23,871 bases of DNA from Sarea resinae (taxonomy: Eukaryota). Of the stretch, positions 10,965 through 16,528 are shown one piece after another. How positions within the stretch are numbered: the stretch's first letter is position 1; every line of letters begins with the position of its first letter. The notes under the pieces were generated by a model. It was not told where the DNA came from. It saw only the letters and a program-made list of their open reading frames with translations, and did not search any database. The stretch spans positions 62,001 through 85,871 of the forward strand of contig JAPEUD010000098.1 in the NCBI GenBank assembly GCA_026026165.1, written 5' to 3'. Position numbers and translations under genes: made by a program.

Positions 10965-11359
10965 ATTCAAACATGTAAGAGGTATGTAGGTAAGTAGTGT
11001 GAAGTGACACCCTTAATCCGGTATGTGCAAAGTGCCGCCCCAAATGAGGCGGAGCTTAGCCTTTGGGCACACGGACCTGCACCAGTCACATCACCAAGCT
11101 TCATTCACGCAAGCTGAGTGGGCGATCGACTCCAAGCGTACGTTGCTCGTTTTCCATGAAGAGACTGCAATGGCGGCCATCCTTGGATAGTCCATCGATA
11201 GCCTCTACGCCTTTTCGAGAATCCGATAGCCTTGCTCACCTTGCTCACCTTTTCTTACCTTTCTCACCTCTGCTCACCACACCCTCGGAGAGATATAATC
11301 TGTCGCTCTTGTCTCTACTAACTCTCGCTATGCTAATGCCCGTCTTCGATGAATGAATG

Positions 11360-13000
11360 AATCCCATTGATCACGAACACACCACGCTCGCTCGCTGTCT
11401 TACTCACGCTCGCTCACTATAGCTTTCGCGTCTCTCGTTCAGAAGCACCAGACAAGATATCATTATTTTAATTTACGATAGCCACCTTCAACTTCAAGCC
11501 AGCCAGCCAACCAGCCCTTCTTGCGCCTTCGATCGATCTTCTCGCGTCGGGGCCAGCGTCATTACGCATCTCCTCTAGAGACCTTCTTCATTCGGACGTC
11601 TTCTGCTCGGTACCTAGTAGGCATCGCTCGGCGATCCATTTCCATTCGTCGCACCGTTCGTGTGGAAAGCAAGAGGGCATCCGCTTTGGTCGCCTTCTGG
11701 GACGGTCATCTATCATATAATTACTCAGACCTCGATTTGCGACACAAGCAAGCCGTTGCCTGACCCCCAACGACGACGGAACGCATTACCGAAACCACCG
11801 CCTTCCTACCTGAGTACCATTTAGGAATACCCATTATCTCATCGGGCTATTGTTTGCATAGGTAACTTTCAGAAACGCCGGGGAGAAGCCTTCTAAGCCG
11901 AAGTCCATTACGCATTTCTCGCCTCTTGTGCGCCGCTTTGTGGGGTCACATTTGTTGTGGCTCACGAGGCAAGCCGTAGGTTAGGGATTTCGAGGTCAGC
12001 AGAGGTCATCCCTTGCAGATCTACCTGCACCTCACTTCCTAGCTCTGCCGTACACACCATTCCCGTCGAACACACTATCGCGCTTCGAGCCGTGCGAGAT
12101 CCTGCACTCAGCGGCAGATAACCCGATAAACCGATTTGTGAAAGACGCCTTTGTGTTCCAGGTGAGTCTACTCCTACCGTTCATGCAACCATGCGACGCC
12201 AAATTTCCGCCCATTGTGATACTCATTGATCGACCAGGCTGTTCTTCAAACCAATTTGTATTGTCGTTGTTTGGGCTACGTCGGCTTCCCGAGACCTTTT
12301 CAGTCAGCTCACGGCGACCTTGCCGTTAGTGGCAATCCAGGAAAGTCCGAGCTTCTTCCTCTGGCCGCGTGTATTAAGTGCTGGAATCGCGTCGATTCTT
12401 CGTCGTCCCCAGAGTTGGATAGAGTCATCTGCCATCTACTCCTTGGTTGAAGTCGTCGCTGGGGTTCGATAGGCAAGCTTTTTGCCTTCGGAATCGTCTT
12501 CTCGACCTCCATCCTTTACGGGCTGGTGGCTAGATGTAAACCTGGCGGTATTTCCTTTGCCATAATTTTCTTCCAACTACAGCCGACTCTCGTTGTTCGC
12601 CCTTACATTCGTTTCTTCTCTACCACCGATCAGTTGGTCCGCGCACCACGATTTCTAGCTTACATCACTACTTTACTCTCTTTCCTCTTATATCGGCGTT
12701 CAGCCTCAATACCGGCAAGCTGGACTCCCTCTATGATCAACGTCTTCAAGTGAGTTCATTTCCTCCCTCAGGAACGTGTTATTCATGCCAGTGACTCTGT
12801 TTGGCCTGCGAGCATATATAGTCTTCAATGGTACATGGCTGATACGTAATTAATCTTTCATGATGCAGGCTTCGGACTTAGGCATACCTTTCATATTAGA
12901 CGAGCAAAACGATCTGTCGGAATCGATAGATCTACGATACGGAGAATATAGCGAAGACGGCCTTCTGGCCAGGGCTGGCTTCCCGGCTGCGTTGCTTTCA
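11360..13000 (+). promoter_or_regulatory. Putative long spliced 5' leader of medA with uORFs and an in-frame non-AUG extension
   Basis: Only three ATGs in 11360-12732 (12183 and 12191 inside a putative intron 12162-12237; 12534 is ATG-TAA). Intron 12750-12868 (GTGAGT..GCTGAT..CAG). In-frame CTG at 12720. Spliced uORF 12733-12881. Confidence 0.6.
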
Positions 13001-15289
13001 ATGTCAGCCTACGGGAAGTCCCCTCAATCTCACATGTACGGTAAGTGAGGCTCATCTGACCGCTTTAGCACAGCCATATAAAGCTTAAAACGGCGCGGTC
13101 CGGTAAATCGCACGTGAGACTAGTCCTTGCTGACCGGCTCTTCGTACCAGACTTCGATGCCACCCGACCACTCCAAGAACCTACGTATGCCGCCGCACCG
13201 CCTCCGTTCGTCACGCATTTCCCTGGCCCGCAGCCTAGGGCGCCTCATGTGTCGGGCCCCGAGCAGCTGTCGCTCATGACTACGTCGCCCTATGTTCCCC
13301 GTTCTTCTTTTGTAGAAGAGTCCGAACCTTTCATCGACCTTCGAACTAGCCAGCTGCCTGAAGTAATATCTATTCACCCAACGACAGGGCCTCAAGGGAC
13401 CAAAGTTCGAGTTCTCGTCGAGTCCGTTTATGATCTCAGCTCGCAGCCACCGCTCTTTTTCTTGGTGATGTTTGGGTCACGGCGGTGCAACAGTGCTCTG
13501 ACCCGAGTCGACCATCAGAGTCTTTACAGCTACGTAGTAGCCGCAGAGGCGCCACCATTAAATACCACTGGCTGGGTCGAGACGACCGTTCCAATGTATC
13601 TGAAAATGGAGGACGAAAGGGGGGAGGACCTAGGTTCAACTGAGATCGGCAACTATTCGTATACAGACGGACTGTCCCAGCCGATTTATAATTCGACTCT
13701 GGACGCTTCGCGAAAAAGAAAGATCTCACTCGAGTCGGCCGAGTCGATAAAAACACCAGCAAAGCGGCCCTCCAACCAGCAACTACAAGCCAGGCCGAGT
13801 GAAGGATATAATTCGTATACCTTTTCTCAAAGTGGTGCAACACCATACTCTCCAAACCTTCAATCTGTGGCAAAAGGCACCTATACCTCTTCGTCAGGTT
13901 ACAACAGACCTTCGATAGATCCGAGTTATCAGCCGCAGCAATTCTCTCCTCGACAACTTTCATATCAATATCCTCCGGTTTCGTCAATGGTCCCGTCTGT
14001 CCCAGCCCGCTCACCAGCAAGCTCTCCTGCTTGGAGCTCATATTCGGCCCTCAGCCAAGCTGGACGAAGTCCCGGGCGAGTTGCTTCGACTGCGATGGCG
14101 CGTGGACCTGCATCAGCGCCATCCCCTCGGTCTGTTAATCCTCCCCTCATTCGAACGTCGACTCTACAGCATTCTCCTAGTCCTGCCACTACGCCGGCCG
14201 GGATCGCTCAGACCAGTCAAGCCTTCAACCCGTACGCAATGTACCCTCACAAGGCAATTTTGAAAATCGAGGGTGACCTTGATACGATGGCGGAGAACTG
14301 GAGTCGAGATGAATGGGATGCTAAACGGCGCCTGGTGCAATTTTCGCGCCAGCAGAACGGGAGTACCATCCAAACGTCATTCACGCCTATTTCACCCGAG
14401 GACCGTCCACCTAACAGTATCTGCATTAGCTGCATCTGGTGGGAAGATAAACAAGGGTGCTATGTCACCAGTGTTGATACTATCTATCTACTGGAATCTC
14501 TCGTGGCCGTCCGCTTTACGGTTGAGGAAAAGAATAGGATTCGCAGGAACCTCGAAGGCTTCAGGCCGCTCACAGTATCCAAAGCTAGATCCGATAGTGA
14601 GGATTTCTTCAAAGTCATCATGGGTTTTCCCAACCCTAAACCGCGGAACATCGAGAAGGACGTCAAGGTCTTCCCTTGGAAGATTCTTGCTCATGCTTTG
14701 AAGAAGATCATCGGCAAATACGTAAGTATTACTGTTCGACAAATCCATCTCAATACTAACGAGGCTCCAGTCCGCAAGCTACTCATCCACCGCCGGGGCC
14801 TTGCTCACCCCAATAAGCTCTACTGGGTATGCCAGTGGAGGACCATCCGACTCCGGCAACGACCACCGTGTGACAGCCTCCCCATGCTCCACTACGACAT
14901 CCATCTCCCCGGCGGCCTATGCCACCACTATGGCCTCAACGAATCTATCCCCGAAAGCGAGATCGTCAGCAGGGCATCAAGTAACAGTAGTCTCACGCGA
15001 TCTTCGCCCGTCGGTGGCCCCAGTACAAACATCTTCCAATCCCTGGGCACAACACCAACAATATTCACACTTACAACAACCCCAAAGTCTGCCTGAGCTG
15101 AACTTGCAAAATGCGAGTGGTCGGAGTTCGTGGGATTTTGGAGCCTATGTCAATACAAGCCCAACCGCATCCGCGGCTCCTGGGTCATCACAGTCTATCT
15201 TCTATCCACGCAGCTCTATCAGCGTCAAAAGGGAGTCATGTGCGGGCATGGACGATTATCCAGGAAGCCACCGGACTTCTCGTTCCTGA
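13001..15289 (+). CDS. medA: Medusa developmental transcriptional regulator (MedA / ACON-3 / Ren1 / Acr1 family), 709 aa from AUG 13001; possibly 763 aa from CUG 12720
   Basis: Exons 13001-13040, 13151-14721, 14771-15289 (introns GTAAGT..GCTGAC..CAG and GTAAGT..ACTAAC..CAG). Family-typical C-terminal block NPPLIRTSTL...KAILKIEGDLDTMAENWS..EW..KRRLVQF...CISCIWW...VTSVDTIYLLESLVAVRFTVEEKNRIRRNLEGFRPLTVSK...FFKVIMGFPNPKPRNIEKDVKVFPW..L.HALKKIIGKYSASYSSTAG. IPT/TIG-like segment PEVISIHPTTGPQGTKVRV. Confidence 0.93.
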
Positions 15290-16528
15290 GCGTTATAGCG
15301 GCGACCAAAAAGCCGTCGATCTTCGGGGTCATGCGGCCTAGCCGAGCTAGTCTTCGTCTGGGCAAACCTGACCCCCACCATACTAGCTTCTTCCACCCCA
15401 CCACAACCACCGATGCATTTAAATACATCTCTCGACAATACCCTTTAACATTGATATTCTCTGATTTCCTCATTAGTGTAGCATTTATCCGGGGTCTTTC
15501 TCGGCGCATGCATTTCTTCTGTAACTCGGAATCTCTTACACTGGGTCTTAATACCATAGCATATGAGGCGTTTACTGGATACACCTATTTAGGGCGCAAG
15601 CTAGGAGACCTGGAGATATGATTCACTGCATTTCCATTTGTTTGAGCGAAGCATTAATCGGCGTCGTATACCTCTTCCTATCAGTCTGTTCATCTGTACT
15701 TGCATATGCTCTACGAGGCGGCGTGGGTTCTTCATTGATCTACTTTTCTTTACTGTATTTGCATGGCCCCGGGGGAAGGGGGCCGGATTTGCGAGATCGG
15801 GATAATGTGAGGGAAACGGTTCCATTCGGGCACTTGCCCTTTGGGATGTATGCAAAGCACTGCTATATTTTCTATCGGTGATGCTTGCCAGCGCATCATC
15901 TATTAATCTTACGAGCTATACGATACGCGTGCCTTCAGTTCTCTGCGAGCGTCGAAATAGCATATATTAGTAGGTGCTCCGTACAATCCATAGTGATACA
16001 ATTCGATTGCCGCGTTCCATTTGCTTAGTTCCATTTGTTTACAGTGACGTCAATGGCTCGTTAAGCCAGAGCGCCCCGTGCAGGTGCCAGTGGCCGTCAC
16101 AGGCCGTGGGCGGCAGTAACCGCAAAGGGACAGTGATACGTTCCTTCGGTCTGCGAATCATGGCAGTTCCGCTCGGTAGCGCATGTGAAGCCTGGCGATC
16201 CCCGTACTTCGTACATACGGAGTAGTCGTAGTACTTCAGTACTCCAGGGCTCCTAGGCCGTTCCCAGTTTCTCGTCTCCTGCGGCGCGAAGGACACTTCC
16301 CTACTTCGTCACACGACTGCTTTCTCGCGGGACCGCCAACCTCACTCTCATCCTACACTACCCGATCGCAAATCTCGACCACCAACTCGTTCACTTCATC
16401 ACACCCTCTCGCCACATCCCCAAGTCTAACCTGTGAGTCTGATAAGATCAATCTCCCATTCTCGCTTTGACTGTCCGTCTCACAGTAACCAGCACAAATC
16501 TCGAAACCGCTTTCGTCATCGCTACACC

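Follow-up and report, generated by a model that had tools for sequence, protein, structure and literature searches.

The medA homologue of Sarea resinae was analyzed within a 23,871-nucleotide (nt) stretch of contig JAPEUD010000098.1 (assembly GCA_026026165.1, positions 62,001 to 85,871 of the forward strand), hereafter the window; all features described below lie on this strand, in window coordinates. Full-length MedA is probably initiated at a CUG codon at position 12720, below an AUG-poor leader with a single short upstream open reading frame (uORF), with leaky scanning to an AUG at 13001. The CUG stands in the context AAG-CTG-G, 54 codons (10 + 44, on either side of an intron) before the methionine at 13001, giving a predicted length of 763 codons, compared with 709 from 13001. 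The gene carries a Pfam PF23305 (DUF7082) domain (E 1.7e-75) and its database matches bear names such as “transcriptional regulator medusa/medA”, placing it in the DUF7082 MedA family. In many fungi, MedA (Acon-3, Acr1, Ren1) controls conidiation, adhesion and virulence in a dose-sensitive manner. A preliminary description of the locus had proposed a translational control cassette of the cpc-1/ATF4 type, composed of a start-stop uORF, the in-frame CUG, an overlapping spliced uORF and the AUG. The intron, the CUG start, the coding extension, the short uORF and the identity of medA were all supported by the present analysis, whereas the cpc-1/ATF4 logic was not.

The comparison set consisted of 80 metagenome loci (the best 80 of 317 confirmed matches) and 336 database proteins. 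Together with the window, the loci made 81 sources, which were reduced to 28 lineages, window included, by collapsing near-identical loci, and lineages were labeled from their best protein match. They span Penicillium-like and Thermoascus-like Eurotiales and other Eurotiomycete-like lineages, Acarospora-like and Letrouitia-like Lecanoromycetes, Lachnellula-like and Mollisiaceae-like Leotiomycetes, and Cenococcum-like Dothideomycetes; Sordariomycetes and section Nidulantes were not clearly covered by the sampled loci. Sequence comparison across this set established the gene structure, the conservation of the CUG and its context, the coding-type evolution of the extension, the depletion of AUG and the conservation of a uORF.

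The CTG at 12720–12722 is embedded in a conserved initiation context block (12708–12725) with the consensus ACCGTCAA[A/G]CTGGC, located about 50–260 nt above a conserved peptide and followed by exactly 27 bases and a GT donor. This arrangement was found in 50 of the 61 peptide-bearing sources; the remaining 11 were three contigs that end earlier (L023, L042, and L054), three members of a clade with an AUG start (L012, L013, and L046; see below) and five representatives of one divergent lineage. At the position of the CTG, 27 of 28 lineages had CTG and one, Thermoascus-like, had GTG, such that CTG was exchanged only for a start-competent codon, and A at -3 and G at +4 were invariant (28/28). 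Conserved leucine columns of the peptide used three to four synonymous codons, and codon 2, an alanine in most lineages, occurred as all four GCN codons. Because these conserved leucine and alanine neighbors vary in synonymous codons, the CTG appears to be fixed beyond the need to encode leucine. An in-frame A..CTGG would be expected about 0.15 times within ∼470 nt, and the window alone is therefore not beyond chance; the features of the cassette are regarded as non-random because they are conserved across lineages. The proposal that the in-frame CUG acts as a start, adding 54 amino acids, is thereby strengthened by CTG or GTG in an invariant context in 28 lineages. The GTG codon was present in L063, L064, L066, and L069, all Thermoascus-like, with context and downstream peptide unchanged.

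The reading frame around the CTG showed the features of a non-AUG extended proteoform, namely a near-cognate codon in good context, an open frame, and no in-frame AUG between it and the nearest upstream stop. In most loci, the frame above the peptide reached a stop without an ATG. Six contigs from CTG lineages were without intron 1 and read straight on (L006, L016, L019, L035, L039, and L070), with open reading frames (ORFs) from the CTG of 645–747 codons in five of them. Five of these six messenger RNA (mRNA)-like contigs had an in-frame stop 7–29 codons above the CTG with no in-frame ATG between, and the leader of the sixth, L035, was just 51 nt long. In the window, as the preliminary description had stated, the TAA of an ATG-TAA at 12534–12539 is the last stop in the MedA frame, and splicing keeps the frame open from 12540 onward, with the first in-frame ATG at 13001. 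The coding part of exon 1 (CUG plus nine codons, 12720–12749) had the same 30-nt distance from CTG to donor in every modeled lineage, even though the length of intron 1 varied. Exon 1 had no stop in frame 0 (0/280 codons), compared with 2/252 and 13/252 in the other two frames (frame 2 having 13/252). The in-frame ACG at 12648, also pointed out earlier, is present but was rejected as an additional start, as the region does not align as conserved. In the spliced mRNAs from the 28 lineages, the mean folding z score of positions +4 to +63 was -0.2 relative to shuffled sequences, and no conserved hairpin after the CUG was supported.

The leader was long and depleted in AUG. Among mRNA-like contigs, leaders were at least 987–1223 nt in length with one or two ATG each, all located at -172 to -204 from the CTG, and up to 1 kilobase (kb) above the start the 28 lineages had 119 sense ATG versus 439 antisense CAT in 23,978 nt. 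In the window, the probable upstream part of the leader has a predicted extent of 11358–12161, consistent with the long leaders of relatives; there was no sense ATG from 11358 to 12182, with 36 CAT in 11000–12720. The only two other ATGs of this leader, at 12183 and 12191, fall within a putative 5′ untranslated region (UTR) intron (GTGAGT...CAG, 12162–12237) whose flanking blocks are conserved in L002, L010, and L040. The L040 counterpart of this interval was missing from the mRNA-like L039, and the extra leader ATGs of genomic L040 sit in 5′UTR introns without counterpart in L039.

An upstream AUG (uAUG) was nevertheless maintained 124–234 nt above the start in 25 of the 27 assessable lineages, often within a common CTGGATGT core and always with a pyrimidine at -3, i.e., in weak context. 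The window uAUG at 12534 is 186 nt above the CTG, with T at both -3 and +4. This conserved uAUG opens uORFs of 1–22 codons in any of the three frames, and the short uORF ends 80–205 nt before the start, the exceptions being L034, L001, and L022, whose second uORFs extend up to or across the start. The start-stop form was found in three of 27 lineages, namely the window and the Acarospora-like L002 and L010. Because form and frame vary, the uORF itself is the conserved element, whereas the start-stop form and its position in the MedA frame are lineage details. A start-stop placed in the MedA frame by design was rejected, given that uORFs elsewhere occupy all three frames. Leaders also contained a strand-biased hexamer, CTCG[CT]T, with 75 sense versus 8 antisense copies within 1.3 kb above the start. 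Copies concentrate around -40 to -135 and -1100 to -1290 (in the window at 11380–11440 and 12589), and two conserved leader blocks, TCGTCGCTCGTTTTG and CAGTCACTCGCTT, include the hexamer.

The second uORF of the preliminary description is also present in the sequence: the out-of-frame ATG at 12733 opens nine codons across the splice junction (12733–12749 joined to 12869–12881), with a stop at 12879–12881. Together with the start-stop uORF, it could be read as delayed reinitiation of the ATF4/cpc-1 type, in which ribosomes that have translated the first uORF reinitiate at the repressive AUG 12733 or bypass it under stress. Both uORFs exist in the window, and second uORFs that run across the CTG in a different frame were seen in L001 (-212), L022 (-215), L005 (-80), and L020 (-86). 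Even so, this mechanism is unlikely. The ATG at 12733 is in weak context (T at -3) and its position was matched in none of the 27 other lineages, two of which (L007 and L034) had an out-of-frame exon-1 ATG at +20 and another (L005) an ATG at +64, while 19 of the 27 had no ATG whatever between the start and the conserved methionine. AUG 12733 cannot gate initiation at the CUG because it lies downstream of it, and no conserved inhibitory second uORF preceding or overlapping the start was found among the lineages. As 12733 is unshared and the overlapping uORFs vary in place and frame, an ATF4-like two-uORF design is not conserved. The expectation that both uORFs would be conserved thus held for the AUG of the first and failed for the second, which is lineage-specific.

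Intron 1 (12750–12868, phase 0, 119 nt) has a GTGAGT donor, a gCTGATa branch-like site and a CAG acceptor (12866–12868), all resembling those of L002 and L010. Orthologous introns of 48–257 nt were present in 22 genomic lineages and missing in mRNA-like contigs. The clearest comparison is between L039 and genomic L040, which are 93–95% identical; L039 is without intron 1 (donor 30 nt past the CTG), intron 2 and two 5′UTR introns. Judged from these relatives, intron 1, as first proposed from the window, is real. An ordinary AUG start without the intron was the first rival to be examined because of an overlooked feature: two consecutive in-frame ATGs at 12860–12865, within the last nine bases of intron 1. 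In transcripts that retain the intron or begin inside it, Sarea MedA could start at ATG 12860 or 12863 and leave the CUG unused. The unspliced ORF (12860–13048) is in the MedA frame and encodes the conserved peptide, and some annotated relatives begin with a methionine a few residues before that peptide (Xylona P0003, Acarospora P0006, and Lachnellula P0117). However, the splice signals of intron 1, branch-like site included, agree with those of relatives, the orthologous intron is spliced out of mRNA-like contigs, and an in-frame ATG in the intron tail was limited to two of the 22 genomic lineages (the window and L007). Furthermore, an intron-retaining mRNA would present ATGs at 12733, 12785, 12828, and 12835 before 12860, and the Acarospora-type “MAQG” start falls on an ATG inside the L010 intron, which suggests artifacts of gene prediction. 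An AUG start of this kind in Sarea is thus decidedly improbable.

A motif near (C/T)TG(C/T)TGCCTA(C/T) recurred within intron 1 of L001, L002, L005, L007, L010, L014, and L020, and also of L022, L034, L045, L047, L055, L075, and L080. TGCCT was found within intron 1 in 15 of the 22 genomic lineages, which were Lecanoromycete-, Leotiomycete-, and Dothideomycete-like, and the motif was missing in Eurotiales-like loci and indistinct in the window. Regulation from within the intron and alternative promoter activity are both conceivable roles.

The extension downstream of the CUG evolves as coding sequence. Its exon-2 part (12869–13000) encodes a conserved N-terminal peptide (P-x-I-[IL]-D-E, DGLLA, and LSMS), for which a hidden Markov model (HMM) matched 61 of the 81 sources. 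Identity by codon position in the exon-2 peptide was 0.57/0.58/0.37, and the ratio of non-synonymous to synonymous substitutions (dN/dS) was 0.09–0.41 in eight of 10 comparable pairs, below one as the earlier proposal of a coding extension would require; two further pairs were left out on account of unequal length. For the nine codons in exon 1, support comes mainly from the fixed length and the lack of stops. When residues 1–260 of the L006 protein were modeled with AlphaFold2 using 27 aligned sequences, residues 1–130 received a predicted local distance difference test (pLDDT) score of ∼50, on which basis the extension is probably disordered, with no function assignable from its fold. It may act as an acidic activation or interaction motif, or affect stability; in Aspergillus fumigatus, N-terminal truncations accumulate faster (PMC3503810), which hints at a role in stability.

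Further support for the CUG start came from a Mycosphaerellales-like clade that has gained an in-frame AUG six codons past the CTG. It serves as the annotated start of peptide-bearing proteins in Zymoseptoria, Dothistroma, Cercospora and others. A length change of 2 nt has shifted the CTG from the frame or substituted it in L046 and L012/L013; judged from these sequences, the nearby AUG was gained before the CTG was lost. This natural experiment, in which some members of a clade with a gained AUG have lost the CTG, supports the CUG-start reading. In annotated relatives, the peptide stands behind assorted methionine starts, or the protein starts at the methionine of LSMS. Among the 120 best matches to a Penicillium-like relative (Eurotiales set), 45 had the peptide behind unrelated predicted N-termini, 36 started at the conserved methionine, eight included the exon-1 peptide and 39 began further downstream. 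Such disorder is attributed to gene predictors finding no AUG. The N-termini of Penicillium P0132 and P0144 begin with the residues of the L048 uORF (MVI, then stop), which suggests that predictors spliced around the uORF stop codon in order to obtain an AUG.

It is highly improbable that only AUG 13001 is used and that the conserved upstream sequence is non-coding and acts in the leader as a regulatory element at the RNA or DNA level. In favor of this reading, many database models begin at the conserved methionine (36/120, and also P0002, P0050, and P0087), and the leader holds other conserved non-coding blocks and strand-specific CTCG[CT]T repeats. Against it, variation in exon 2 is greatest at third codon positions, eight of 10 pairs have a dN/dS below 0.45, 28 lineages preserve both the frame and the 30-nt length, and in an entire clade this peptide is translated from an AUG.

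Between the start and the conserved methionine, AUG was strongly depleted, with 10 ATG in 4386 nt versus 71.7 expected from the main exon rate (0.0163 per nt), and 4 in 3903 nt once the AUG-start clade was removed. Among the 25 lineages relying on CTG or GTG alone, window included, four had an out-of-frame ATG before the conserved methionine. This methionine, at 13001–13003 in the window, is that of LSMS and the first in-frame AUG after splicing; every one of the 28 lineages has it, and in 27 of them a pyrimidine occupies -3, a weak context. Depletion of AUG in the spacer fits selection for unobstructed leaky scanning and, by extension, a shorter isoform, of which AUG 13001 is the probable start. 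We infer this short form with caution, because the AUG is weak and is kept where an upstream AUG exists.

Taken together, these features suggest that ribosomes would scan at least ∼1 kb of leader, kept nearly free of AUG, before arriving at the CUG. Many should pass the uAUG (a start-stop in Sarea, ∼180 nt above the CUG) because of its weak context, and those that use it could resume scanning. Full-length MedA would then be initiated at CUG 12720 in optimal context, the phase-0 intron having been removed after 10 codons, and translation would continue through the acidic, probably disordered peptide. Ribosomes leaking past the CUG would meet almost no AUG before 13001, where a form shorter by 54 residues would begin. 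From the sequence patterns we infer the actual use of the CUG, the ratio of long to short forms and any regulation of this ratio.

Several observations weigh against initiation at the CUG, or limit the evidence for it. In addition to the ATG pair in the intron tail, the conserved methionine is kept in the AUG-start clade as well, and is not necessarily conserved as a start. Codon 2 of the window is GAC, compared with GCN in the 27 other lineages. The divergent L059, L061, L062, L068, and L071 are without P-x-I-L-D-E and have ATGCAG at the likely acceptor and ttcaaACG upstream. In two close Leotiomycete-like pairs, dN/dS was 3.4 and 0.9, with very few substitutions underlying either value. Exon-1 codons 3–10 had no codon-position pattern over deep lineages (0.41/0.41/0.44), and their dN of 0 with dS of 0.17–0.69 was obtained in Eurotiales-like pairs only, on 1–3 differences. 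As regards the sample, the 28 lineages are related rather than independent, such that probabilities are inflated and indicative only, and exon-1 models were found by a pattern requiring CTG + 27 nt + GT, which presupposes the 30-nt spacing. Contigs other than L039 were called mRNA-like on the basis of uninterrupted ORFs, and the ORF of L039 itself breaks after 103 codons. RNA of Sarea was available from one wood-decay metatranscriptome run kept as contigs (0.11 of sampled words). A 180-nt contig from this RNA library covers 12512–12691 of the window with one mismatch; the only other one lies at 15541–15997, and neither spans the 12749/12869 junction.

Parts of this arrangement are known from other genes. 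Mammalian ATF4 is controlled by delayed reinitiation, defined by an inhibitory second uORF, and a start-stop (AUG-stop) uORF occurs in the leader of plant NIP5;1. Unlike the NIP5;1-type start-stops, the medA uORF takes this form in three of 27 lineages and is 3–22 codons long elsewhere. As in ATF4 and in the delayed reinitiation of yeast GCN4 (as summarized in PMC5487733), a short 5′ uORF lies well above the regulated start in medA, but the second medA uORF is not conserved and, in the window, comes after the CUG. A close parallel is cpc-1 of Neurospora crassa, which has a leader >700 nt with two uORFs and N-terminal extensions initiated at near-cognate codons (PMC5487733). Both genes, although unrelated, encode a fungal transcription regulator with a long uORF-bearing leader and a conserved in-frame near-cognate upstream of the AUG; cpc-1 has two conserved GCN4-like uORFs and several near-cognates, whereas medA has one conserved uORF and one dominant, invariant CUG, in optimal context and followed by an intron. 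A main product from a CUG conserved in N. crassa was also proposed for IDI-4 of Podospora anserina, likewise a regulator of a filamentous fungus, albeit of a different protein family, bZIP (PMC5487733).

Outside the fungi, C/EBP (PMC5487733) and c-Myc (bioRxiv 10.64898/2026.06.01.729300) are transcription regulators with a long form from a near-cognate in good context and a short form from a leaky-scanned AUG, as proposed for medA; in medA, unlike in these, the AUG is weak, the extension is split by an intron and there is mostly no AUG able to give the full length. Hox mRNAs, also encoding developmental regulators, have conserved upstream starts in weak context that sense start-codon stringency (PMC8892498), but the Hox uORFs repress an AUG-initiated main ORF, whereas the main start of medA is itself non-AUG. 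Among conidiation regulators, brlA of Aspergillus nidulans has uORF-mediated translational control in its leader (bioRxiv 10.1101/627414). It differs in its AUG main start and its alternative transcripts, and it is restricted to Eurotiales-related fungi, compared with the several classes over which the medA cassette extends. Near-cognate extensions, and exchange between weak AUG and near-cognate starts, are described for fungal aminoacyl-tRNA synthetases (PMC7049704). Conserved near-cognate-initiated extensions are thus already known in fungi, and medA would be a further case. A literature search found no paper in which a non-AUG start or a conserved uORF was described for medA or acon-3, although an older description of the medA leader may exist, and the main text of Ivanov 2017 mentions neither gene.

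A more far-reaching and less probable reading is that, in most Pezizomycotina, full-length MedA can come from the CUG only, and that start-codon stringency and the single conserved weak uORF would set both the amount of MedA and the balance between its long and short forms. If so, asexual development would be tied to the state of the translation-initiation machinery, and an incomplete or artificial N-terminus of MedA would underlie published work and most gene models. The conserved N-terminal motif is indeed missing or replaced in the deposited Sarea model and in most of the 120 models of the Eurotiales set; given a CUG start, it would be absent from most annotations or replaced by artifacts, and constructs made from annotated ORFs may not yield native MedA. 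The succession of an AUG-free leader of about 1 kb or more, a weak uORF, an optimal CUG, an AUG-free spacer and a weak AUG could provide a means of tuning a developmental switch to translational state. In addition, medA offers a clear comparative example of the exchange of CUG, GUG and AUG starts in evolution.

The remainder of exon 2 (13004–13040) was delimited by the splice phase of the sequence, in agreement with P0002 and P0003, and is followed by intron 2 (13041–13150), the ortholog of which is missing in L039 relative to L040. Exon 3 (13151–14721) comprises an immunoglobulin-like beta-sandwich region and DUF7082, as indicated by the PF23305 match, and this main exon is 100% identical to the deposited 650-residue protein P0001. 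The latter is a truncated model that begins at an internal ATG (13035) and runs through intron 3 (14722–14770, GTAAGT...tactaac...CAG) to give a false C-terminal tail; orthologs run on as KY/SASYSSTAG (the slash marking the junction). Exon 4 extends to the stop codon (14771–15289), with an ORF at 14801–15289 in the same frame and agreement with ortholog C-termini. AlphaFold2 predicted a confident beta-sandwich (pLDDT 90–98) for residues ∼135–240 of the L006 protein, equivalent to ∼13330–13650 of exon 3. Its PDB matches were generic immunoglobulin-like folds, the 47th-ranked being the C-terminal Rel-homology domain of NFAT1. Downstream of the medA stop, the contig at 15541–15997 from the same metatranscriptome run was 457 nt in length with nine differences, and could represent the 3′UTR of a related strain or a neighboring transcript.

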